Positions 2,616 through 23,123 of a stretch of DNA of 64,000 nucleotides are shown here, in pieces. Within the stretch, counting starts at the first letter, position 1. Each line of letters begins with the position of its first letter. The notes beneath the pieces are model-generated. The model did no database searches. It worked only from the letters and a program-made list of their open reading frames with translations, and had not been told where the DNA came from. The DNA comes from a virus. Made by a program: the position numbers and the translations under genes. The DNA lies in UHGV virus genome UHGV-1374396. The stretch is one strand, 5' to 3'.

Positions 2616-3338
2616 CTAATATGTTCTTTTATTTAATATATTATCTATCTTCTCCTGAGTAATATCTTCTTCTTTCTTATCTAGATAACTAGCATATAAT
2701 ACGTCTGGGTCATAGTTTTGATACACAGAGTATAATACATTATCAAATGGTAGAGATAGTTTCATAGTTCCATAATTTACTACCATTTCTAAACCTACCA
2801 ATCTATTTTTTAAATCTACAGAAGTAACTGTTGCTTCAACACCTTCATAAGGGTAACCCTTTAAATGAACGAATTGTCCTACCTTGAGATTTACTAAATC
2901 ATCTAAAGAATATTTCTTATTATCTTTAGCAATTCTGATAAACCTCTTTACATCGTTTTTAGGGCATAATGCAATTAGAGAGAAGTCATCGAAATCTTCT
3001 GCATTATCAACCCTTGCTTTCTTTTTCCTTGGATGTATAGTTACTGTATCTTTTACCCAGTGATGTATACCGGGTATAGTCTTCTTTAATTTGTTAAGAA
3101 ATGTACGATTATGAGCTAGTTGGATATCCATTTTCATAAACCCATAATTAAAAAGTACGGGCTCTTTAGAATATACCATCTTACCTTTATGTGTTTTTTT
3201 AAGCACATTTACCATTGGTATTATTGGTTTTACTCCTTTAATACCGGCTTCTTCCAGTTGAGATTTTATATTACTAAAATATTTCTTATCGAGGTAGAAT
3301 ATACAGTATACTTTCTTTCTAGAGCCTGACTTTTTCAT
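2616..3338 (-). CDS. NusG-like transcription antitermination factor paralog (NGN + KOW domains)
   Basis: N-terminal KKVYCIFY...LFNYGFMKM matches the NusG NGN pattern (WYvv...FPGYVfV). C-terminal LKVGQFVHLKGYPYEGVEATVTSVDLKNRLVGLEMVVNYGTMKLSLPF aligns with the NusG KOW segment [45 protein letters not shown]. Confidence 0.5.
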   Translation of the reverse strand: MKKSGSRKKVYCIFYLDKKYFSNIKSQLEEAGIKGVKPIIPMVNVLKKTHKGKMVYSKEPVLFNYGFMKMDIQLAHNRTFLNKLKKTIPGIHHWVKDTVTIHPRKKKARVDNAEDFDDFSLIALCPKNDVKRFIRIAKDNKKYSLDDLVNLKVGQFVHLKGYPYEGVEATVTSVDLKNRLVGLEMVVNYGTMKLSLPFDNVLYSVYQNYDPDVLYASYLDKKEEDITQEKIDNILNKRTY

Positions 3339-5612: not shown

Positions 5613-6616
5613 TGTTCTGATTCTTTTAGTATTTTTACCAATAAATCTTCCTTACACTTATCTTTAATACCTTGTTGTTTCATGTACCTATGTGCCAATC
5701 TTTTCTTTGAAAGTTGTTTAGTGATTTTATGGTTCACTACATCGGGTAAGTTTATCTTACTTGGTAGTACGGTGTAATAGTTACCATCATCCTTTACATC
5801 GGTATCTTTTTCTACATCTATGAACCTTGGATATTTAGCTAGATGTATAAACTTCATACTTAAATCTGTATATACCTCCCAATAACCCATATCACAATTC
5901 TTATCGGTTCGTCGTTGATGTAAGGGAGCTCCAATCATATAAACCTTTTTACCAAGCTTTTGAGGTTTGTGTATATGACCACATAGAACTAAATCAAACC
6001 TTGATAGAGTATTTAAGTTTAGATTCTCTACCGAATCTATTCTTCTATCATCGGTATCTTTTGCACCGGGATAATCAGTATGTAGTAATAGTATATGTTT
6101 ATAATCTGAGTTCAACCTTCTATTCTTAAGGTACTCAGATAAACCAGTATTATGATCTATGTAAGGTATACCGTGTACTTGAAACTCTTTGAACGGTCCA
6201 ATGTTCAATAGTGTATCTGGTTCTAGGACATTTAATACTGTGTTTTGGAATAAACTAATCCAACCTTTGGTGATATTACCTAATGTATTTACTTTCTTCA
6301 GGTCATGGTTACCCTCTATACAGTAAATACGTTGTCTTGGAAACTTATTAACTAAATCATCAAAGAAACTCTTAGCCATTAAGGCAAGTTCCTGGTCTAT
6401 GTTTTCTGGTTTATGAAACATATCTCCACAAAATAGAATAGGTACATCACCTCGTTTCTTAGATTCAGCACATAAAGTTTCTATTACATCAAAACCGTTT
6501 TTAGTTCTAGTTTTATTATCATTAAACTTTGCCCACAGGTTTAGGTGTAAATCAGAAAAGGCAAGGGCTAATAACTCCTTGCCTTCCTTTTTCTTGTTTT
6601 TCTTAAATCTTGTCAT
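5609..6616 (-). CDS. SbcD/Mre11-like nuclease (T4 gp47-like), calcineurin-type phosphoesterase
   Basis: Phosphoesterase motifs LAFSDLHL, GDMFH, GNHD, GHIH. Coupled by overlap to the SbcC-like gene. Confidence 0.8.
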   Translation of the reverse strand: MTRFKKNKKKEGKELLALAFSDLHLNLWAKFNDNKTRTKNGFDVIETLCAESKKRGDVPILFCGDMFHKPENIDQELALMAKSFFDDLVNKFPRQRIYCIEGNHDLKKVNTLGNITKGWISLFQNTVLNVLEPDTLLNIGPFKEFQVHGIPYIDHNTGLSEYLKNRRLNSDYKHILLLHTDYPGAKDTDDRRIDSVENLNLNTLSRFDLVLCGHIHKPQKLGKKVYMIGAPLHQRRTDKNCDMGYWEVYTDLSMKFIHLAKYPRFIDVEKDTDVKDDGNYYTVLPSKINLPDVVNHKITKQLSKKRLAHRYMKQQGIKDKCKEDLLVKILKESEQ

Positions 6617-13853: not shown

Positions 13854-14612
13854 TTAAATTAACTCGTCTATCGAAGTTTTTAATAAATGCCAATCTCTCT
13901 TATAACAGTGTAGAGAATCAATTGTATGGAATAAGAAACCTGGTTTTACACCAACTTCTTTTGCTATGTATTCCATCATACACCATGCTAGATATACATC
14001 ATCTCCAAAGTGTCCAACAAAGTCAGAGCTACGTTGGTGATATACTAGATTCAATTGTTTACCATTACCCAAATCTCTGATAAGTAAATCGTAATACATT
14101 GAACAAGGTATACGAGCATCACCACAGTAATGTTTAGTATCACTACCTGTGAATATAGGTATAATTGCCTTACGAGTATCTGGGTCATTCTTTAGTAATT
14201 CAATAACCTCTTCGATAACTGTACCTGAATTCTCAGAATTACCGTTTTTACGATTAAACCTTTCAGCATAGGTATAGTCGAATTTCATACCTTGGTCAGT
14301 TTTTACTAAAAACTCTTTCCACATACCAGGATTAAGTTCCCAAGCATTACCAGGATTAAGTTCCTTACCAGATATTCTCTCTTGAAACTCTTTTCTTGCC
14401 CATTCAAATGTTTTTGTATAGATGAATAGGAATTCTGGGTCTGGTAACTCTGTAAGACAGTACTGTTTACAAATCTCTTCTTTAGTTACCATGTTATCAT
14501 CTTTAGAGATGTCTTTATTCTGGTAAGTTTTAGGTTTATTTAATAAACCCATTTCCCATAAGTCTCTGCCCATTTCAGACATTAACTCTCTTGTGTTACT
14601 GTATATTCTCAT
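13854..14612 (-). CDS. Thymidylate-synthase-family pyrimidine C5-modifying enzyme with Asp at the specificity position (dCMP hydroxymethylase- or methylase-like)
   Basis: LLKNDPDTRKAIIPIF vs E. coli ThyA LKNDPDSRRIIVSAW. Catalytic IPCSMYYD vs APCHAFFQ. LVYHQRSSDFVGHFGDDVYLAWCMM vs [25 protein letters not shown], so the Asn177-equivalent residue is Asp, as in T4 dCMP hydroxymethylase. Confidence 0.75.
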   Translation of the reverse strand: MRIYSNTRELMSEMGRDLWEMGLLNKPKTYQNKDISKDDNMVTKEEICKQYCLTELPDPEFLFIYTKTFEWARKEFQERISGKELNPGNAWELNPGMWKEFLVKTDQGMKFDYTYAERFNRKNGNSENSGTVIEEVIELLKNDPDTRKAIIPIFTGSDTKHYCGDARIPCSMYYDLLIRDLGNGKQLNLVYHQRSSDFVGHFGDDVYLAWCMMEYIAKEVGVKPGFLFHTIDSLHCYKRDWHLLKTSIDELI

Positions 14613-14650
14613 ATTCTTATTATTTGTATTTTATATAATAAAGTTAATCA

Positions 14651-15571
14651 CTATGCTTTATGAGCTGATTTTCTTTTAAGAAGCTTCCTTTTATAGGATT
14701 TACGCTGAGAGAATGTGATACAACTTTCTGGGTATTCAATTGTATCATCTCCCAAGTTTAAATCTTTTGCTAACAAGGGTTTATATTCATACAGGTCTGG
14801 ACGTATCACCTTAAATGCTCTTAGATATACTTTAAACTTAGAGAACTCTTCAGGAGTACCGTCCATGAATTTATTATATACCTCTTTTACTCTCTTGTAC
14901 CAAGAAGATTTTTTATCATAACCTTTGAAAATATCTTTGAAAGGTTTATGAGCTACGTACATTAAGAGAGTTTCTACGTTACCATACATCTGTGTAGCAA
15001 ATACGTTTATTTGTACTGCCTGGTCTTTACCATATACATATTCTGCCATACGTTGAACCAGTAAGAAGTCGAATATAAGTCTCTTTGTAATTTCTGAAGC
15101 TCTAAGAACTACAGTTACTACTGGTATATCCTCCTGAAACCTTTTACTAAAGGTAGCTGCTAGAAGGCACTGTTTACCATTATTATGTGAATTATTAAAT
15201 AGGTAGCTTATATTATAATTCTGATTATAGGTTGTCTTCTTTACATTAAGCTGAGATTTAATCAAATCTAGTTGATTAAAGTCTATGTAATTGTTTAATA
15301 ATACTGTCCACTTAGCTTCAGTATAATTAAAGTGACGACCATAATCGAATTCAGGGTCTATCCAAGCTCTACGTATTTTTATAAATACATTATAGCATAC
15401 TGCTACTCCTGCATTTGCCACTGCTCCCTTTGAGAACAATAGAGGGTCTAAAGTTAGAAAACCCTCATTTAACTTTTCCCATGCCTCTTGTGAAGTAGCA
15501 AATTCCACGGCATGACAAGTTTCTTCTGAGTTTAACTTTAGACCTTCAAGGGGCTTATTCCAACCACCCAT
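14651..15571 (-). CDS. Hypothetical protein; possibly a highly diverged TS-fold paralog
   Basis: Weak, by-eye correspondence to ThyA core elements: QCLLAATF ~ PCHAFFQF, VVLRASE ~ LYQRSCD, IFDFLLVQRMA ~ [12 protein letters not shown]. Not reliable without profile search. Confidence 0.3.
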   Translation of the reverse strand: MGGWNKPLEGLKLNSEETCHAVEFATSQEAWEKLNEGFLTLDPLLFSKGAVANAGVAVCYNVFIKIRRAWIDPEFDYGRHFNYTEAKWTVLLNNYIDFNQLDLIKSQLNVKKTTYNQNYNISYLFNNSHNNGKQCLLAATFSKRFQEDIPVVTVVLRASEITKRLIFDFLLVQRMAEYVYGKDQAVQINVFATQMYGNVETLLMYVAHKPFKDIFKGYDKKSSWYKRVKEVYNKFMDGTPEEFSKFKVYLRAFKVIRPDLYEYKPLLAKDLNLGDDTIEYPESCITFSQRKSYKRKLLKRKSAHKA

Positions 15572-15697
15572 ATTACGAATTAGATTTTCTTAGGGCCTTA
15601 GCAGCCTGTTGTTCTTTACGCATAAGTTCTTCTAACTCTCTAGCTTCTGCTTTTCTTTTCTGTACTTTACCGAAATTCTTTTTCATATGTGTATATT

Positions 15698-16570
15698 TTA
15701 ATAATTACTGGCCTGTCTGAAACAATTTACCTTATGTTTCTTAAAGAAGAGTACATAAAAGGTTTCTGGTGTAAAACCCATAACACTTAAGTAACCGCAG
15801 TAAGCAATGAAAGCTCTTACTATCTGTTCCTGGTAACGTAAACCATCAGTTAATTCTTGAGTTTGTTTCCAAGTCTTATTCTTTAAGAAGTTTCTACCTA
15901 TGTTAAGATGATAGCATACTTTCCATAGCATATTATCTTCTTTTGAATGCAGTTCACGAGTTATACTTCTGAATCCAGGGATATAACTTAGTACATGTTC
16001 TACATCTTTGTTGTGGTCAACTAGTAATTGTTCAGTTACTAAGTTAAACAGTTGAAGTTTAGGTTCTACATAACCTTCAGTCTGTAATATAAAGTGTCCA
16101 AAACCAAATAAACCATTTAGATTATCTACTGAATGGTCTGTACCTTTTAGTATACGTTGGTTGATGTATTCATATATATCCTCTGGACCGATATTAGCAT
16201 ATATGAATAACTCTGTAAAGAAAGCAAAGGCATCTGCTTGTTCTTCGTTTGAGTTCTGCAAATGATTTATTACCATCTCGAACTGATCATGGGTTAATAG
16301 GTCCATATTCCAACCTACTGATTCAGCTATTCTGATAGCTTCTTCTGTTGATTCATAACCTTCTGCAGTCTCTTCTATAACTCTTGCAGAGAAATCTTTA
16401 AGTACCAACTGACCTTGTTCTGAGTTTATACTTATGGGGTACATTGGTAGATTCTTTTCAATCTTGCCAATGTAACCTTCCATAAGTCTCTTCTGTAACT
16501 CAAAAATCTTTTCTAAGAATAGGCCATCCTTTACCTCTTCGGGTGTTTCTTTTATTGTACGTATGTCCAT
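15698..16570 (-). CDS. Putative all-alpha NTP pyrophosphatase (MazG or dCTPase/dimeric-dUTPase-like)
   Basis: Acidic helical segments VIEETAEGYESTEEAIRIAE and EEQADAFAFFTELFIYANIG resemble the MazG EExxE / EELGD helices. Lies between the TS-like and dUTPase-family genes. Confidence 0.3.
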   Translation of the reverse strand: MDIRTIKETPEEVKDGLFLEKIFELQKRLMEGYIGKIEKNLPMYPISINSEQGQLVLKDFSARVIEETAEGYESTEEAIRIAESVGWNMDLLTHDQFEMVINHLQNSNEEQADAFAFFTELFIYANIGPEDIYEYINQRILKGTDHSVDNLNGLFGFGHFILQTEGYVEPKLQLFNLVTEQLLVDHNKDVEHVLSYIPGFRSITRELHSKEDNMLWKVCYHLNIGRNFLKNKTWKQTQELTDGLRYQEQIVRAFIAYCGYLSVMGFTPETFYVLFFKKHKVNCFRQASNY

Positions 16571-17136
16571 TACTTTTTAGGTTTATTATTACCAGATCCC
16601 ATACCTTTATCACCTCTTGTTCCCCAGTTCTTAGCTTCTTTATCGAACTCTTCCTGAGTAATCTCTTCTGGTTCAGTTAAATAAATTGGTGTATGAATCA
16701 ACTGTACCAAAGCTTCTCCAGCTTTTAGTTGAACTGGTCTGCATGATGTATTATATACACATAGGTTATATTCTCCAGTATAAGGTGAATCACCTACTTG
16801 AGCAGTGAATATTAAACCTTGTTTAGAACTTCTACCTGATTTATTTGCTACTATCAGAGCTGAATTAATAGGCTCTGCCAATATTCTAATACCACTTGGT
16901 AGATTGATTCTTGTGTTTGGTCCAAGGAAGATATCAGTAACATTACCTTCATTGTAAGCTAGACTTACTGTGTTTTCTGTATTTGCTACTTCTGATATTT
17001 CTAAATGAGGGTTACTCAATGCAATATCAGACAGTTTAAAATCCTCTGGTATGTAGAAATCCAAACCAGCATCACCAACATTATTTCTTGTTGGTTCATG
17101 TACTTTACGTACTTTTACGAATCTAATTCTTTCCAT
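16570..17136 (-). CDS. dUTPase / dCTP deaminase family protein
   Basis: Motifs NVGDAGLDFY (AGxDL), VANKSGRSSKQGLI (RSS), QVGDSPYTGEY (GxIDxDYRGE-like). Confidence 0.7.
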   Translation of the reverse strand: MERIRFVKVRKVHEPTRNNVGDAGLDFYIPEDFKLSDIALSNPHLEISEVANTENTVSLAYNEGNVTDIFLGPNTRINLPSGIRILAEPINSALIVANKSGRSSKQGLIFTAQVGDSPYTGEYNLCVYNTSCRPVQLKAGEALVQLIHTPIYLTEPEEITQEEFDKEAKNWGTRGDKGMGSGNNKPKK

Positions 17137-17401
17137 GTTGTAAACTTTTTATGTTTGAAAAATTATGAACTTTATCTATAAGGTCTCCATAGGTAATACC
17201 ATCATGGTATGTAAATTTCAAATCGAATACAGTCTTATCCAATTCATCATTTATACTTTTTATGATATGAACCATATCTTTCTTATTACCTATGATATCT
17301 TCTAATTTGCATTCTCTACCAACCCATTGATTTGGGTTGTTCATATACCTTGAAAGTATTCGTGTTATTATAGGGATAACAATTTCTGTAACTTTGTACA
17401 T
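17123..17401 (-). CDS. Hypothetical protein
   Basis: 92-aa ORF, colinear and overlapping its neighbours. Confidence 0.35.
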   Translation of the reverse strand: MYKVTEIVIPIITRILSRYMNNPNQWVGRECKLEDIIGNKKDMVHIIKSINDELDKTVFDLKFTYHDGITYGDLIDKVHNFSNIKSLQHGKN

Positions 17402-17781
17402 CAGCTTATCTCCTTATATATTTTACGTATTATCTTAGTTGGTACTTCAAACTTATTACTAGCTTTGCTTATACACTCTTTACGTGTATACCCTTTTCTT
17501 TTATATATTCGTAAGTATTTTTTAATACCTGTTACATCTTCTAATACGTCTAAATCCTTATACTGATTTTCTTCTTCTAACTCTTTACGAGTTTTATTAA
17601 GTAGTTGGCTCATTCTGTAAGCACATAATTCAGAATCACCACATAACTTACACTCTTTAGTACTTAAGTCATATGCTTTACCAAAGCAAGGGTCTCCATT
17701 ACCACCTATTGATGTTAGGTCTATAGGTACTAATGGGTCATGACTACTTAAATCTGGTAATTGTTTTTGTTTCTTTGCCAT
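17401..17781 (-). CDS. Hypothetical Cys-containing protein
   Basis: 126-aa ORF with CFGKAYDLSTKECKLCGDSELC. Confidence 0.35.
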   Translation of the reverse strand: MAKKQKQLPDLSSHDPLVPIDLTSIGGNGDPCFGKAYDLSTKECKLCGDSELCAYRMSQLLNKTRKELEEENQYKDLDVLEDVTGIKKYLRIYKRKGYTRKECISKASNKFEVPTKIIRKIYKEIS

Positions 17782-17823
17782 TGTATATGTTGTTATTTTA
17801 TTTACTTATTATATAATTGATAC

Positions 17824-19656
17824 CTAGTACTCCTTAACTGTAAGACCTAATTTCTTAGCTTTCAGCATTTTACTTGAGGTAGAGTTTATGTCTCCAGTAA
17901 ATATAATCTTGGCTTCACTAAAAGACGAGGTTTCCTTATATTCGGGATTAGCTTTTAAAAACTCAGCTTTAGTTTTATATTGTTTTGGACTACCAGTAAG
18001 TATACATAAAGTTTGATTTGATTCCTCTAGATGAAAATCTTCTATGCCCTTGTGCATTGATTTTAGTAACTTATTTAATTTTCTAAATTCTTTGGAATCC
18101 TTTGATAAAACCCATTCGGTTTTATAATTAGGTAGTTTACCCTCTCCGGTAAGTATTATACGTTCTAATATATTGCATACCTTTGGTCCGTGTGAATCAA
18201 GGCACATAGTTTGTATTATCTTAGCAAGAGTAATATCCTGGAGTATCTTCTTGAATTCAGTGTATATTTTCTTACCTAATAAAGTAGGTATAGCTCTTTT
18301 TATAACCTTAGGTTTTACTCTAAGTATATTTGAGACAACTTTGCCATTCTCTTTTAGGTATTCATATAATTGTTCTGATAATGCAGGACCTAACCCTGGT
18401 ACAGATAGTATATCACATGAATTTAAGAATTTATTCTTTATACCTTGGTCTTTTGATAGTACAGCATAAGCATGACAATCTTTAACTGTAAATTCTCTTT
18501 TTGGTAGAGGTAGATTCTCTCCAAAGGTTTTTACCTTATAAATAAAAGGTATAATATCTCCAGCTAATGAGATAACTATCTTTGAACCTATTCCAATGAC
18601 CTTATCTACTAAGAAACCATAGTTATGACCTGATACATTGGTTATAGTTTTACCATCAAGTACTACTGGTTTTACCTGCAGTGTTGGGTAGTATTCTCCA
18701 GTTTTACCAAGATTCCAGTTTATATTAACTACCGTAGTCTCGGCTACCATTGGTTCAAACTTGATAGCTATACAATCTGAAGGATATTCTGTTGGTACCT
18801 TATCTCTATGATTTGAACTTGGTTTTATTACGAACCCATCTAATGGGAATTTATACTCAGACCTGAAGTTTGATAGAGTGTAGTATACTTCCTTGAACGA
18901 AGATTTTAATAGTCCATCAGAGAAGATAAATGTTGCTGGATAAGGTATACCAGTTTTACCTACCCTAGATACTACATCTTTATCATCTAAGTCAACTAAG
19001 GTATTATCTTTGATGTATCTGTAATCATAAATAACGTACTCAAGGTCAGAAGCTTTCTTGAATTCTACTTCGTTAGAATCATCATAATCAGAGTTTACCA
19101 TACCCGATACGAAAGACCTTGGGTTCTTAAACTCCTCTGAGTATTTCTTTTCGAAGGTATCTTTACTTATTAATACCTCTCCTCTGAGAATAAAGCATTC
19201 ATAGTCTTTAAACGCATTAAAGTCAATTGGTTGTTTGATTAGCATAGTTCTCATCAAACTATAAATATCTTTTCCCCAATTACCATCACCTCGAGTTGAT
19301 ACCGAGAAGAGTTTTCCGTACTTTACTACCATTTCAAAAGAACACCCATCATACTTGGGTGTAACAATTACTGAGTGTTTCTTAATTACGTCTGGTAATT
19401 GTTTATACAGATCACCCCAATCTGATGTTTTATGTACCTGTATCTTATTTAATGAGCCCATAATAAATGGGTGAGGTACAGTATAATTATTACTGGTAGA
19501 AGGTGCACCAATCAATCTATTTTCCATGCCTAGCTTTTTCTCTAGAGCATCGAATTCAATATCGGGCATTATCTCTTCTCCATTATAGTAAGCTTCTCTG
19601 GCCTTTATATATAATTTAAGGTCTTTCTTTAAGTTTGACTTTGTCATAATATCCAC
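17824..19656 (-). CDS. NAD-dependent DNA ligase (LigA-like)
   Basis: N-terminal Ia-domain-like YYNGEEIMPDIEFDALEKKL, adenylation motif KYDGCSFEM (KxDG). Length 610 aa. Confidence 0.65.
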   Translation of the reverse strand: MDIMTKSNLKKDLKLYIKAREAYYNGEEIMPDIEFDALEKKLGMENRLIGAPSTSNNYTVPHPFIMGSLNKIQVHKTSDWGDLYKQLPDVIKKHSVIVTPKYDGCSFEMVVKYGKLFSVSTRGDGNWGKDIYSLMRTMLIKQPIDFNAFKDYECFILRGEVLISKDTFEKKYSEEFKNPRSFVSGMVNSDYDDSNEVEFKKASDLEYVIYDYRYIKDNTLVDLDDKDVVSRVGKTGIPYPATFIFSDGLLKSSFKEVYYTLSNFRSEYKFPLDGFVIKPSSNHRDKVPTEYPSDCIAIKFEPMVAETTVVNINWNLGKTGEYYPTLQVKPVVLDGKTITNVSGHNYGFLVDKVIGIGSKIVISLAGDIIPFIYKVKTFGENLPLPKREFTVKDCHAYAVLSKDQGIKNKFLNSCDILSVPGLGPALSEQLYEYLKENGKVVSNILRVKPKVIKRAIPTLLGKKIYTEFKKILQDITLAKIIQTMCLDSHGPKVCNILERIILTGEGKLPNYKTEWVLSKDSKEFRKLNKLLKSMHKGIEDFHLEESNQTLCILTGSPKQYKTKAEFLKANPEYKETSSFSEAKIIFTGDINSTSSKMLKAKKLGLTVKEY

Positions 19657-20146
19657 AGTTTATTAATTCATGACAACCATTACGGTATAAACAATCAGGT
19701 ACCATAACCTTAGCAACATGAGGGTCTACTAATTTTATGGCTTTCTTTAATAGATGAGTGAACTTTCTTGTTTCTGGTGAAGCATGAAAGCAAAGTCTCT
19801 TCCTACCTATAAAGATTAGAGCTTGAGCATTAATTAGGAAGCTCAGATTAACTGGGTCTGTTTGTCTACGTTCTTCTCGTTTAACTCCAGTACGGTCTTC
19901 TCTTGAGGTACCTACAAACCATTCAACCCCTAACTTATGTCTTACTAAGTGATTCTGAACATAATAAGGGATTCCTTCACATTGTACTAGAAAGGTTAAT
20001 GCTCTAATAGGAGAATGTTCTGCCTGGAGCATTTTATCTTTCCATACATCTGCAACTGTATTAGTTACTACTTTCTTGTTAACTGTTTGCAATGCAAGCT
20101 CTTTAACTACATCCCAACCAATTAACTGTCTAGCTGTTATTTTCAT
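19616..20146 (-). CDS. ThyX-fold (flavin-dependent thymidylate synthase-like) protein with a divergent signature
   Basis: EHSPIRALTFLVQCEGIPYYVQNHLVRHKLGVEWFVGTSRED aligns with ThyX [39 protein letters not shown]. RHR is replaced by RHK, the Ser of RHRxxS by Gly/Val, and SGRY by TSRE. Only 176 aa. Confidence 0.4.
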   Translation of the reverse strand: MKITARQLIGWDVVKELALQTVNKKVVTNTVADVWKDKMLQAEHSPIRALTFLVQCEGIPYYVQNHLVRHKLGVEWFVGTSREDRTGVKREERRQTDPVNLSFLINAQALIFIGRKRLCFHASPETRKFTHLLKKAIKLVDPHVAKVMVPDCLYRNGCHELINCGYYDKVKLKERP

Positions 20147-20385
20147 CTCTTCTTGTATATTAAACTTTTTAGATATAGTTCTAATTTATTCTTATCGTTA
20201 CTGAGTTGTTGTAACTTATCTAGCATATCATCCTCTAAAACTCTTTTAGTTACTGTATGTAATTTAAGGCTTTGTGATATATTCTGTGTTACAAAAGAGA
20301 ACCTCATCTGTGTAACAAATCCTGTATTAGTAACGGTATAGATAATAGGTACTCCATTAATCTCTATTTGAGTTGGTTTAGCCAT
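20143..20385 (-). CDS. Hypothetical protein
   Basis: 80-aa ORF coupled to its neighbours. Confidence 0.35.
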   Translation of the reverse strand: MAKPTQIEINGVPIIYTVTNTGFVTQMRFSFVTQNISQSLKLHTVTKRVLEDDMLDKLQQLSNDKNKLELYLKSLIYKKR

Positions 20386-21008
20386 TATTCGTATGATATA
20401 GATTTTAGTTGTTGCATAAATATTTTCACAGAAGTCTGTAGGTTGTTTCTCCAGTATTCTGGAATCTCATCTAGTGGACTACCTTCTCCTGGTATATATG
20501 CTAGCATTATAGCTCCGATAGCATCTAACATCTTATGATGAGGTGATACATGTCTTTCCCAATCTGGTAATCGTTGTTGGATTAGAGCATTCATGTCTCT
20601 GTTGTATTGCTTAGCAACTTGTATCATCATTATCGCTGTTAGAGCATTGTTGATTACCTCTAAGTATTCCTGAGATTCATATACCTTGAGTAGAGCATTG
20701 TTCATTGTGTAGAAGAGTTGAGTAAGGTGTATGTTCATTAGTCCTCTCCACTCTTCTGATTTAACCTTGATGTAATCGATGTTCTTTTGGTCTAGATTTA
20801 GACGTAGTTCATAGTACCAGTTAGCTTTGATATCGTTAAGCCTACGGCTTAGTTTGATGGTATCTGGTACTCTGTGATCTCTACACCAAGATTGAACCTT
20901 GTCTGAATAATATAGTACTGTATCGATTATCATGTTAGGTGTAAAACATATACGCATGTGTTCATCAAACGTAAATGAATCTAACATACTCTTTAAGTCT
21001 TTGTTCAT
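20385..21008 (-). CDS. Hypothetical protein
   Basis: 207-aa ORF. Confidence 0.4.
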   Translation of the reverse strand: MNKDLKSMLDSFTFDEHMRICFTPNMIIDTVLYYSDKVQSWCRDHRVPDTIKLSRRLNDIKANWYYELRLNLDQKNIDYIKVKSEEWRGLMNIHLTQLFYTMNNALLKVYESQEYLEVINNALTAIMMIQVAKQYNRDMNALIQQRLPDWERHVSPHHKMLDAIGAIMLAYIPGEGSPLDEIPEYWRNNLQTSVKIFMQQLKSISYE

Positions 21009-21011
21009 AGT

Positions 21012-21092
21012 CTATTTATTTGGGTTATTTAGTAGTGTTATTATACCTAACACTAATGTTATAAATATTAATACGTAGTGCATTATACACAT
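21012..21092 (-). CDS. Micro-ORF encoding a 26-aa single-pass membrane peptide
   Basis: MCIMHYVLIFITLVLGIITLLNNPNK. AAGGAGGA RBS 5 nt upstream. 3-nt spacers to neighbouring ORFs. Confidence 0.4.
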   Translation of the reverse strand: MCIMHYVLIFITLVLGIITLLNNPNK

Positions 21093-21095
21093 AAT

Positions 21096-21230
21096 CTAAT
21101 CCTCCTTATCTTTAGAGATACTATCTATGTATCCCTTGAATGCTAAAAATAAAATCAATGTACCCATTAAAGCCATTAACCCTAAGAGTACATATATTAA
21201 AGTTAATTCTAACGAAGTTGGTTGTTCCAT
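21096..21230 (-). CDS. Micro-ORF encoding a 44-aa single-pass membrane peptide
   Basis: MEQPTSLELTLIYVLLGLMALMGTLILFLAFKGYIDSISKDKED. Tightly packed between flanking micro-ORFs. Confidence 0.4.
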   Translation of the reverse strand: MEQPTSLELTLIYVLLGLMALMGTLILFLAFKGYIDSISKDKED

Positions 21231-21233
21231 ATC

Positions 21234-21317
21234 TTATCTATTAGAGTCGTCAATAATAATGATAAATAGTACAATGAATATAAGTGTTATTAGTAAACAT
21301 AGTAATACAGGTCCCAT
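21234..21317 (-). CDS. Micro-ORF encoding a 27-aa single-pass membrane peptide
   Basis: MGPVLLCLLITLIFIVLFIIIIDDSNR. Confidence 0.35.
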   Translation of the reverse strand: MGPVLLCLLITLIFIVLFIIIIDDSNR

Positions 21318-21319
21318 AG

Positions 21320-21436
21320 TTAATCCTTTCTTTTATAAATATCTCTTAATGTGCAAAATACTAATAAGCTAATCATTAAGCTTATGGTACCCATGAAACC
21401 GTAGACTAGTACGTAATCTAATGTTGTTGCTTTCAT
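21320..21436 (-). CDS. Micro-ORF encoding a 38-aa single-pass membrane peptide
   Basis: MKATTLDYVLVYGFMGTISLMISLLVFCTLRDIYKRKD. Confidence 0.35.
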   Translation of the reverse strand: MKATTLDYVLVYGFMGTISLMISLLVFCTLRDIYKRKD

Positions 21437-21543
21437 ATTTATTTAATTTAATGTTTATATATTCCTATAGAAATGAAAAGAACTACTTGAGTAGAGATTG
21501 TTACTCTATTCTTGTAGTCCTTAATATTTAACGTTATTGCTTA

Positions 21544-21585
21544 GTGCCTTATGCCTTGGCTTTAGCGATTAGCCCTTAGCCTTAC
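21544..21585. repeat. About six imperfect heptamer repeats (GCCTTA-like): tgcctta tgccttg gctttag cgattag cccttag ccttac
   Basis: Direct reading of the intergenic sequence between the helicase gene end (21636) and the micro-ORF cluster. Confidence 0.4.
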
Positions 21586-21635
21586 TTATTTATCTCCTAC
21601 GGAAATAAATATGTAATCATTTAGTCATCAAGAAT

Positions 21636-23123
21636 CTAGAACGGTAAGTAGAGATCTGAGTATCTTTTATATCTATTCCAGATCTTGCGTAGATTGATGA
21701 CTTTTAATTTTTCTCTTCTATAATATCGGGCTCTTCGTTTACTATGCCTTGATAAATAATTATTACCGTTATACTGTATATCATCTAGGTATACTTTATT
21801 CTTACCTTCGAATAAACGAACCAATCTACCTAATAACTGTATGGTTTTTTCTTCGGATGACATACCTGCAGCATTTACCATATAACGTAGTTTAGGGAAG
21901 TTTTTACCTCTTGATATAAGTGTAGTTGAAACCAATATGTCTATGTCTCCATCCCTAAACCTTTTCATTATTTGGTTTCTCTTTACTTTATTAGTATTTA
22001 CGTGTACATATTCTATCTTATATTTGCTTCCTAGTTCTTTATAAATATAATTATATAACTTCTCACAGTGTTTAATATGCTTGCATACTATGAGTGCTGG
22101 TAAATTGCCATATTTGATAGCTTTCTTTAATCTATCGTATACGCATTTATAACCATATACGTTATTGGTTATGTATTTATCGTATTCCTCCTTATAATCT
22201 CTAATGTACTCATTTGAAGGTAAGTACCAAGGTTCTGTATCTACTAATTTAACGATTACGTTAGTAGAATAACCTTTCTTTATTGAATCTTTTAATCTGA
22301 ATTCCGATATCTTCTGCCCGAAGTAAGCTTCCAGGTTCATATTCTTTAATAAGTCTCTCTTCAAGGCAGATACATAGATTGTACCTGATAAACCTAACCT
22401 TACTCTAGTGTTATACAAATGAGATAATACTGATTGATAAGATTTACTTCCTGCTAAATCTGCCTCGTCGACTAGTACCATATCTACCTTGGCTAATTCT
22501 CTCTGATAAACCTTTATGTTTCTAGATATGGATTGAACCATACCTATACTGAAGTTAGACCAGTTAGTAACCTTACTACCTTGAACGAAAGTTATATCTT
22601 CTCCAGGTAAGTATTCCTTAAATTCTGATTTAGCTTGTTGTAACCAATCGGAATCGTTAGTTATCAATAAAGTCCTAAGCTTCTTACCAAAACTGTAGTA
22701 TAGTGCTGACATTATTAGAGTTTTTCCAAAACCTACGTTCAAATCTAGAACACCAATATAATAAGGTACGTTATCTATTTTATTAGCTAATATTTGTTCC
22801 AATACTTTAAACTGTTCGGCTCTTAGTTTAAAGTCTCCTACAGTTTTTACTGCCTTAGCATTTGGGATAGGTAAACGTTTATCTATTACGTTTACTTTTA
22901 ATTTTTGCTCTTTACACCATTTATATATTCTTGGTAGTAGACCTATCTTGAACTTACCATATTTATTTAAGAAGTGAACTTTACCGTCCCATTCTTTTAT
23001 CTTACCTCTTAGATAAAAGGCATTAGGGTGTCTTACTGATAGTTCTTGATACAACTTTAGAGCATACTTCTGTGGTATGTCTAAGGTACACTCGTTACAG
23101 TTATTAATTATTATATTACTCAT
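21636..23123 (-). CDS. Superfamily-2 DNA helicase (DEAD/DEAH-like)
   Basis: Walker A NVGFGKTLIMSA, motif II LVDEADLAG, motif VI-like LISRGKNFPKL. Confidence 0.65.
   Translation of the reverse strand: MSNIIINNCNECTLDIPQKYALKLYQELSVRHPNAFYLRGKIKEWDGKVHFLNKYGKFKIGLLPRIYKWCKEQKLKVNVIDKRLPIPNAKAVKTVGDFKLRAEQFKVLEQILANKIDNVPYYIGVLDLNVGFGKTLIMSALYYSFGKKLRTLLITNDSDWLQQAKSEFKEYLPGEDITFVQGSKVTNWSNFSIGMVQSISRNIKVYQRELAKVDMVLVDEADLAGSKSYQSVLSHLYNTRVRLGLSGTIYVSALKRDLLKNMNLEAYFGQKISEFRLKDSIKKGYSTNVIVKLVDTEPWYLPSNEYIRDYKEEYDKYITNNVYGYKCVYDRLKKAIKYGNLPALIVCKHIKHCEKLYNYIYKELGSKYKIEYVHVNTNKVKRNQIMKRFRDGDIDILVSTTLISRGKNFPKLRYMVNAAGMSSEEKTIQLLGRLVRLFEGKNKVYLDDIQYNGNNYLSRHSKRRARYYRREKLKVINLRKIWNRYKRYSDLYLPF

Follow-up and report, generated by a model that had tools for sequence, protein, structure and literature searches.

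What do the 425 nucleotides (nt) at positions 21012-21436 of the gut phage genome UHGV-1374396 encode, and what would their products do in an infected cell? They belong to a stretch of 64,000 nt (the window, analysed here at its full length) and lie in its replication module, between a gene for a UvsW-like helicase of superfamily 2 (SF2) and a gene for a protein of 207 amino acids (aa). The first-pass annotation, made from the letters of the DNA, had read the region as four tandem open reading frames (ORFs) of the minus strand, each coding for a short hydrophobic peptide, and had preferred them to an 81-aa ORF on the opposite strand. Comparison with related phages indicates that the slot downstream of the helicase gene is, very probably, a hyperplastic accessory locus, that is, a hypervariable slot occupied by real genes for single-helix membrane micro-proteins. 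This hypervariable cassette slot, the main feature of the region, had escaped the first-pass annotation.

The four micro-genes and their coding status

The four ORFs stand exactly at the coordinates first proposed for them:

21320..21436, minus strand: micro-gene A, ATG-initiated ORF of 38 aa (MKATTLDYVLVYGFMGTISLMISLLVFCTLRDIYKRKD)
21234..21317, minus strand: micro-gene B, ATG-initiated ORF of 27 aa (MGPVLLCLLITLIFIVLFIIIIDDSNR)
21096..21230, minus strand: micro-gene C, ATG-initiated ORF of 44 aa (MEQPTSLELTLIYVLLGLMALMGTLILFLAFKGYIDSISKDKED)
21012..21092, minus strand: micro-gene D, ATG-initiated ORF of 26 aa (MCIMHYVLIFITLVLGIITLLNNPNK)

The spacers A/B, B/C, C/D and D/207-aa gene measure only 2, 3, 3 and 3 nt, and the four ORFs tile 98% of the 425 nt. 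Not one of 20,000 dinucleotide-preserving shuffles reached 90% coverage by ATG-initiated ORFs of at least 25 aa (the maximum was 85%); five shuffles contained at least four such ORFs, and no shuffle contained as many as three hydrophobic ORFs. The view that each product is built around one hydrophobic helix also holds. The 19-residue Kyte-Doolittle maxima (KD19) lie between 2.2 and 3.7, the highest being that of B, against a classical threshold of 1.6, and the uncharged cores comprise 22-25 residues (residues 8-30 in A). These cores are predicted to span the membrane, each product forming one transmembrane helix with very short tails. AlphaFold2 models C as a single continuous helix over residues 6-43, with a predicted local distance difference test score (pLDDT) of 89.5. 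Across the whole 64-kb window, A-D are the only hydrophobic small ORFs in the gaps between the large ORFs.

B is a very hydrophobic single helix with an acidic tail, and A has an acidic to neutral N-terminal tail and a basic C-terminal tail (+2). Because A and C share an acidic N-terminal tail and basic residues right after the helix, both are predicted to sit N-out/C-in in the cytoplasmic membrane of the host. The residues conserved in C are E8, I12, Y13, L16, G17, L18, L21, G23, T24, I26, L29, I35 and D36. Among the conserved positions are small residues of the helix (G17, G23 and T24 in C, G16 in A) and a tyrosine (Y13 in C, Y12 in A), and these small residues and the tyrosine suggest that the helix carries a specific packing face.

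Related loci, about 25 in all and designated here by L numbers, were gathered by means of the helicase from IMG/VR, metagenome contigs and exact-protein look-ups, and substitutions were counted by the Nei-Gojobori method in close pairs. Pooled over ten independent pairs, 49.7 synonymous changes fell on 207.5 sites and 46.3 non-synonymous changes on 782.5 sites; the resulting ratio of non-synonymous to synonymous changes per site (pN/pS) is 0.25 (binomial p = 1.8e-11), so that the test of conservation and selection in relatives suggested by the first-pass annotation came out in favour of the micro-genes. Individual pairs, including those of further families (E, F and G) found in the same slot of related phages, gave the following counts:

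Family A, window and L044: 3 synonymous and 1 non-synonymous changes
Family C, L007 and L008: 9.5 synonymous and 4.5 non-synonymous changes (omega 0.09)
Family E, close pair: 4 synonymous and 0 non-synonymous changes
Family F, close pair: 4 synonymous and 1 non-synonymous changes
Family G, close pair: 4 synonymous and 2 non-synonymous changes

In L003, whose helicase protein is 99% identical to that of the window, A is unchanged, C carries two synonymous changes and one non-synonymous change, and B is represented by an allele, B', with 20 nucleotide differences in a gene of 84 nt and with length, frame and hydrophobicity kept (pN/pS ~0.4). D is missing from L003 by an exact indel of 84 nt, the ORF plus its 3-nt spacer, flanked by TATG. 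All DNA-aligned indels inside the array are of this whole-gene kind or in frame, the other case being a fusion of B and C in L043. The first-pass annotation had named indels that break the micro-ORFs and spare the opposite-strand ORF as the pattern that would speak against its reading; the relatives display the opposite, with whole-gene indels and sense frames kept.

Family A is the most widely conserved: same-slot homologues occur also in L007, L035, L036 and L045, and A is kept in the slot of L025 and L033, two loci with other genes downstream and with only ~66% identity over the aligned C-terminal half of the helicase. Members of family C were found in seven other loci, and the identical four-gene array is present in an independent assembly. 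D, found in the window, L044, L048 and L049, is the cassette most recently gained or lost, and its likeness to the D' ORFs (25-31 aa) of L007, L008 and L042 is weak (z ~4). In L044 (about 620-710) the start codon of B reads AGG, not ATG, on a contig with a coverage of only 3.7x, which may reflect decay of the cassette or an assembly error. Taken together, the comparative data argue that A-D are genuine protein-coding genes under selection, strongly for A and C, moderately for B and least for D.

The same comparison bears on the ORF that the first-pass list of ORFs had proposed in place of the micro-genes:

21127..21372, plus strand: opposite-strand ORF of 81 aa, not a gene, a by-product of the sense genes

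For identical substitutions, those between the window and L003, pN/pS is 0.32 in the sense frames versus 1.51 in the antisense ORF. The antisense ORF exists only in the near-identical loci (window, L003, L044 and L048), measures 31 aa in L043 and is absent elsewhere; it is lost or shortened where the array differs, while A and C persist. Its product is not hydrophobic and matched no family. The first-pass annotation was thus right to treat the micro-ORFs as real and the opposite-strand ORF as spurious. Public gene calls leave out B and D; in one assembly (L048, positions 2565-2810) they list the antisense ORF and omit B, C and D. The nr database record for a C-family micro-protein (P0008) carries the clearly spurious title 'SMR Proline-rich submaxillary gland androgen-regulated family'.

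Variation of the cassette slot

Across related phages the slot holds zero to four micro-genes in varying combinations. About 13 array states, counting the empty one, and at least eight one-helix families (A-H, 25-45 aa) were distinguished, the states occurring among phages with helicase proteins ~83-99% identical to that of the window:

L005, L006: empty slot
L023: E
L038, L039, L040: C-E
L043: A-B''
L003: A-B'-C
Window, L048, L049: A-B-C-D
L044: A-B-C-D, with AGG as the start codon of B
L007: F-A-D'-C
L035, L036, L037: F-A-C-G
L008, L024: C-D'-G
L042: C-D''-(A/G chimera)
L045, L046, L047: F-H-A
L025, L033 (more distant phages): A alone

Judging by these states, whole micro-genes are gained, lost, duplicated (A and C), re-ordered, swapped for divergent alleles and fused. 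Junction spacers recur in front of different genes: aaatttttacaacaATG introduces C in L007 and G in L008; aacttcaaaacatataaatATG introduces G in L035 and L036 and D' in L008 and L042; and gtaacacaATGgaa introduces A in L007, L035 and L036 and H in L045. In L042 (about 3225-3311) an A and a G cassette form an in-frame chimera (MGTTILNHILAYIFLIFMSIIWVGEFRK), and in L043 (about 3119-3199) B'' runs in frame into the KED* tail of C; both variants may be snapshots of cassette recombination and decay. The reused spacers, together with the chimera and the fusion, therefore point to exchange at or beside the stop/start junctions. Repeated structured elements of the attC type or of the promoter early stem-loop (PeSL) type were sought between the cassettes and none was found. 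An integron-like cassette array was considered and ruled out, the spacers being 2-20 nt long and the junctions having no inverted repeats, with no integrase among the neighbours scanned.

The first-pass annotation had called the peptides unrelated to one another. For A and C this does not stand: an alignment of their profiles by hhalign gave a probability of 96% and a score of 39, versus 9.3 +/- 2.2 for column shuffles, and none of 200 shuffles restricted to the core reached the real score, so that A and C are best regarded as paralogues. The other families appear unrelated to A and C, and F, G, H and E show no apparent kinship; relatedness of D to D' and of B to D' is borderline (z ~4). The turnover of cassettes among near-identical phages fits an accessory role in host-specific or phage-phage conflict.

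Two further micro-genes deserve mention. The family-A member of L033 (positions 3001-3204, P0006) has 67 aa, with the same N-terminus and helix and a long acidic and polar C-terminal extension reaching into the beginning of the following gene, which shows that the cytoplasmic tail is free to grow. L009, a more distant relative, carries at 6100-6231, after a dUTPase-like gene, an ORF for a 43-aa single-helix protein with an acidic tail (MVLVQLITTKDMTMLITLLIALWILYILFSDSDNDEDNNLKLS); such micro-genes may be present at other slots in this phage group.

Leader, expression and genomic setting

The slot is bordered by the following features:

21636..23123, minus strand: UvsW-like SF2 helicase gene (Pfam ResIII, Helicase_C and UvsW_N; PHROG 16), the conserved upstream anchor of the slot
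21437..21635, minus strand: structured leader of ~200 nt, from the helicase stop codon to the first slot gene
21582-21616, minus strand: leader hairpin 1 (ATTTATTTCC-GTA-GGAGATAAAT)
about 21480-21520, minus strand: leader hairpin 2
21454-21471, minus strand: A/T-rich promoter-like box TCTATAGGAATATATAAA, ~25 nt ahead of the first ATG
20385..21008, minus strand: 207-aa gene, directly downstream of D, sharing the frame of B, C and D

The leader aligns in 13 of 13 loci whatever the first gene, the empty slot of L006 included. Its predicted RNA fold has an energy of -45 kcal/mol (z = -4.3 versus shuffles). The promoter-like box reads TCTATAG(G/C)AATATATAAA across loci, with TCTATAGnAATATATAAA conserved; AAGGC-like short repeats of variable copy number lie between the hairpins, and the leader differs from that of L003 by a 13-nt indel. 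Scans of the window and of the locus against Rfam gave no match, and the leader motifs are unique, no further copies having been found in the window. We infer that within the leader the helicase transcription unit ends and the following one begins; possible identities of the element are a terminator/promoter unit, a site for a regulator or something akin to an origin. If one transcription unit does begin here, the micro-genes would be promoter-proximal in an operon running on into the 207-aa, 80-aa, ThyX-like and NAD-ligase genes. Because they stand at the head of this co-directional string, the micro-proteins would most likely be made with the replication and nucleotide-metabolism genes and not with the lysis genes.

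A Shine-Dalgarno-like motif precedes only 1 of the 59 large genes of the window, a frequency below the background at random positions, and the regions upstream of these genes (59 large minus-strand ORFs) are A/T-rich. The established lack of Shine-Dalgarno use is a trait of the Bacteroidota, and the near absence of these motifs in a gut phage suggests a host of Bacteroidota type. The 'strong' ribosome-binding site that had been claimed for one of the micro-ORFs, AAGGAGGA upstream of D, does not survive this comparison: it is probably not a ribosome-binding site, since the genome does not use Shine-Dalgarno sites. The motif encodes the 3' end of C (KDKED*), and in L003 and L043 these nucleotides border directly on the 207-aa gene.

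B, C, D and the 207-aa gene follow one another in a single frame (21008-21317), neighbours being separated by a stop and one codon (TAA GAT, TAG ATT and TAG ACT). Read-through into a B-C-D-207 fusion was considered and ruled out, as the common frame is lost in L007 and L035 and the genome otherwise translates well with the standard code. A tRNA scan of the window found no genes and hence no sign of a stop-codon recoding that would fuse these frames. In-frame indels of cassettes probably account for the shared frame. AlphaFold2 (pLDDT 83) models the 207-aa protein as an all-helical bundle, for which neither a Pfam or PHROG family nor an informative fold match in the PDB was found; its structural relatives are only uncharacterised gut-phage proteins, including one of a crAss-like virus (template modelling score, TM, 0.71). 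Its gene is itself variably present, being missing in L007, L008, L035, L036 and L042, split in L046 and truncated in L038.

The phage is an uncultured gut myovirus of ~80 kb, apparently lytic. The window has ~33% G+C and nearly all its genes are on the minus strand. Pfam and PHROG scans identified structural proteins (tail sheath, baseplate and tape-measure), and the replication and nucleotide genes include a PolA-type polymerase, a DnaB-like helicase, a primase, the UvsW-like helicase, a single-stranded DNA-binding protein (SSB), an NAD-dependent ligase, a dUTPase and MazG-like and thymidylate-synthase-like proteins. A near-identity DNA search against cultured and deposited phages found no close relative; by protein, the nearest deposited records are uncultured human-faecal phage contigs, with a helicase identity of 46% and a different neighbourhood. 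A dense nucleotide-metabolism cluster at 13854-20146 holds a 252-aa thymidylate-synthase-like protein, a MazG-like pyrophosphohydrolase, the dUTPase, the NAD ligase and a ThyX-like protein, the last short (176 aa) and just below the Pfam cut-off (24.1 versus 24.8 bits). The cluster may constitute a modified-nucleotide pathway.

Possible functions of the micro-proteins

We propose that each micro-protein would insert in the host cytoplasmic membrane and there bind, helix to helix, a larger membrane protein belonging to the host or to a rival phage. Possible outcomes would be host takeover through a block of cell-wall synthesis or division, superinfection exclusion, or the neutralisation of membrane-bound defence effectors, and targets caught in such arms races would explain the rapid combinatorial turnover of the cassettes. 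Binding is favoured over bulk membrane damage because small residues and a tyrosine are conserved within the helix, because there is no charged pore-lining face, because several different members co-exist at the head of a replication-gene operon and because there are precedents. The 53-aa early phage membrane protein Gp11 of PhiNM1 binds MurG and DivIC (PMC11237401), and bacterial small membrane proteins commonly work by binding larger membrane proteins (PMC12648545). The account as a whole, real micro-genes combined with this mode of action, is in our judgement the best available and on balance probable; for the helix-binding mechanism taken by itself our confidence is tentative and falls somewhat short of that.

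Neither A-D nor families E-H had a match above cut-off in Pfam, PHROGs, NCBIfam or PADLOC, and none of the eight families had a PHROG or PADLOC match that would place it among superinfection-exclusion or anti-defence proteins. Weak matches were far under threshold (ComI, E = 0.054 and 13 bits, cut-off 55; YldA, E = 0.005 and 17 bits, cut-off 45). An exhaustive profile search with family A recovered 4 cluster representatives among 1.84 billion, all of this lineage. Membrane anchoring of replication, for which phi29 p16.7 is a model, was also considered and ruled out, the peptides having no soluble domain.

Several points weigh against the binding account. Transcription, translation, membrane insertion and target are all predictions from sequence. 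Scans for sigma-70 promoters and terminators and for the Bacteroides -7 motif (TAnnTTTG) showed no enrichment, which leaves the promoter putative, and a host of Bacteroidota type is suggested only by the missing Shine-Dalgarno motifs. The comparative data for B and D are thin (three B alleles and two identical copies of D), and the start of B is possibly lost in L044. At larger distances (A versus the A' subgroup, D versus D') pN/pS rises to 0.7-0.9, which may reflect saturation, misalignment or relaxed constraint. Moreover, selection for mere hydrophobicity, as expected of a generic membrane perturbant, would lower pN/pS too, and this ratio therefore does not tell the helix-binding model apart from one of membrane damage.

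In a membrane-damage model the peptides would resemble type I toxins, viroporins or holins, oligomerising and dissipating the proton-motive force without specific partners, with shutdown of host metabolism, abortion of competitors or lysis timing as the consequence. The size of the products, their single hydrophobic helix and their short charged tails do follow the general design of type I toxins (PMC8309996), many of which are prophage-borne (PMC12648545); the extreme hydrophobicity of B (KD19 3.7) and the dispensability of individual members would also be at home in such a model. However, no toxin or holin family was matched in Pfam, NCBIfam or PHROGs, the helices lack a charged or strongly polar pore-lining face, and the genes are 2-3 nt apart in an operon-like string and do not look like stand-alone units with a long 5' untranslated region (UTR) and an antisense RNA. 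Nor does the opposite strand carry an excess of promoter-like sites (7 versus a shuffled expectation of 9.3, for motifs that may not be those of the host). The location is a replication module with no lysin among the neighbours scanned, the lysis cassette itself not having been located, and several toxins in tandem at the start of a replication operon would be hard to reconcile with productive replication. We consider this model unlikely, and its holin or antiholin variant, one of the roles first suggested for these peptides, is further disfavoured by the position at the operon head, by size and by the absence of a holin family match. A second possibility, to which we give little credence, is that the micro-genes are translated with no function of their own in trans, either as cis-acting leaders or upstream ORFs coupling or tuning translation of the 207-aa and 80-aa genes in a genome devoid of Shine-Dalgarno sites, or as weakly selected young proto-genes born from T-rich DNA, in which hydrophobic ORFs readily arise. 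The genes always lie between a conserved leader and the first larger gene, their 2-3 nt stop/start spacing favours translational coupling, and in the window a single frame is common to B, C, D and the 207-aa gene; the slot may be empty (L006), so that none of them is essential, and the families are confined to this phage lineage (for family A, the 4 representatives among 1.84 billion). A purely cis role, however, would not constrain amino acids. Against it, close pairs have pN/pS values of 0.05-0.3, and particular features (Y, G, T and the acidic N-terminus) are the same throughout families A and C. Moreover, A persists beside an entirely different downstream gene (L025 and L033), cassettes move as units to other positions of the array, and A and C have been kept as paralogues over considerable divergence.

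The reading in which the region is non-coding regulatory or origin DNA, or in which the real gene is the opposite-strand ORF and the minus-strand ORFs are accidental, is effectively refuted and its probability negligible. It could draw on the presence of the 81-aa ORF in the first-stage ORF track and in one public gene call (L048) and on the structured, repeat-bearing leader next to the array, but the shuffles never reproduced the tiling, the sense frames are under strong purifying selection, the antisense frame has a pN/pS of 1.51 and is gone in relatives that keep A and C, and Rfam offered no match.

Among known systems, the closest in architecture are the hyperplastic regions of T4-type phages (PMC2839356, PMC4122927), where clusters of small, non-essential and lineage-restricted ORFs likewise lie between conserved blocks of replication genes and close relatives differ by insertion, deletion or replacement of whole small genes. 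The stem-loop and promoter-like element at the border of the slot also recall the T4-type PeSL that mediate shuffling; here, however, a single element is found, at the 5' edge, with no further copy between cassettes or in the rest of the window. The cassettes are, moreover, 2-20 nt apart, and exchange must therefore use short junction sequences. Whereas T4 hyperplastic regions hold mixed ORFans, every cassette here codes for a single-helix micro-protein of 25-45 aa.

The nearest functional models are the early small membrane proteins of phages and the regulatory ones of bacteria. SPO1 gp56, lambda Kil and T7 gp0.4 are small division inhibitors of phages. PhiNM1 Gp11 resembles the micro-proteins in its very small size, predicted membrane location, inferred pre-late expression and accessory nature, but has two predicted helices, is encoded by a single gene and shares no sequence similarity with the one-helix proteins of the combinatorial array (PMC11237401). 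AcrZ, MgtS, KdpF, YohP and the plasmid-encoded ComI are one-helix proteins of less than 50 aa, some of which bind larger membrane proteins; their N-out/C-in design is similar and they too have been overlooked by gene finders, although they are encoded by single chromosomal or plasmid genes that are usually stress-regulated (PMC12648545, PMC7549839). Type I toxins (Hok, Fst/Ldr, TisB, Ibs, ShoB and BsrG) are a look-alike: they have 20-60 aa, one hydrophobic helix and a short charged tail and often reside on mobile elements or prophages, whereas the genes described here form a tandem operonic array without individual promoters or UTRs, have no family match, encode helices with no polar pore-lining face and belong to an apparently lytic phage (PMC8309996, PMC12648545). 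By the evidence of the scans, A-D appear to belong to none of these known families. Judged by conservation, purifying selection and synteny, they qualify as conserved phage small-gene families, strongly for A and C, moderately for B and weakly for D. A comparative-genomics catalogue by Fremin et al. from 2022 reportedly covers conserved phage genes of fewer than 50 codons, many of them predicted to be transmembrane and most of them unannotated; to our knowledge, it describes no tandem shuffled array at a fixed slot. Thus, conserved small phage genes as a kind were already known, and what is new is a tandem, shuffled and family-diverse array at a fixed promoter-proximal slot.

Standard gene callers miss or mis-call genes such as these, which leaves a class of selected phage genes invisible in gut-virome annotation. 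The locus is also a compact natural example of very small membrane proteins that duplicate, shuffle and fuse. Should the products prove to be general perturbants of membranes or leaders in translation, its interest would be modest; should they have specific membrane proteins as partners, the array would supply eight or more families of inhibitors or probes of 25-45 residues, short enough to synthesise and screen. Possibly, and this is a speculation that we ourselves rate as quite unlikely, the slot is a dedicated diversification locus, a promoter-proximal 'micro-protein magazine' of one-helix membrane binders that are duplicated, recombined at their junctions, chimerised and perhaps born de novo from T-rich sequence, each phage carrying a different cocktail against membrane proteins of hosts or rivals. 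If true, the magazine would be a combinatorial, cassette-based system for evolving transmembrane-helix inhibitors and a natural library of them for hosts of the Bacteroidota type.

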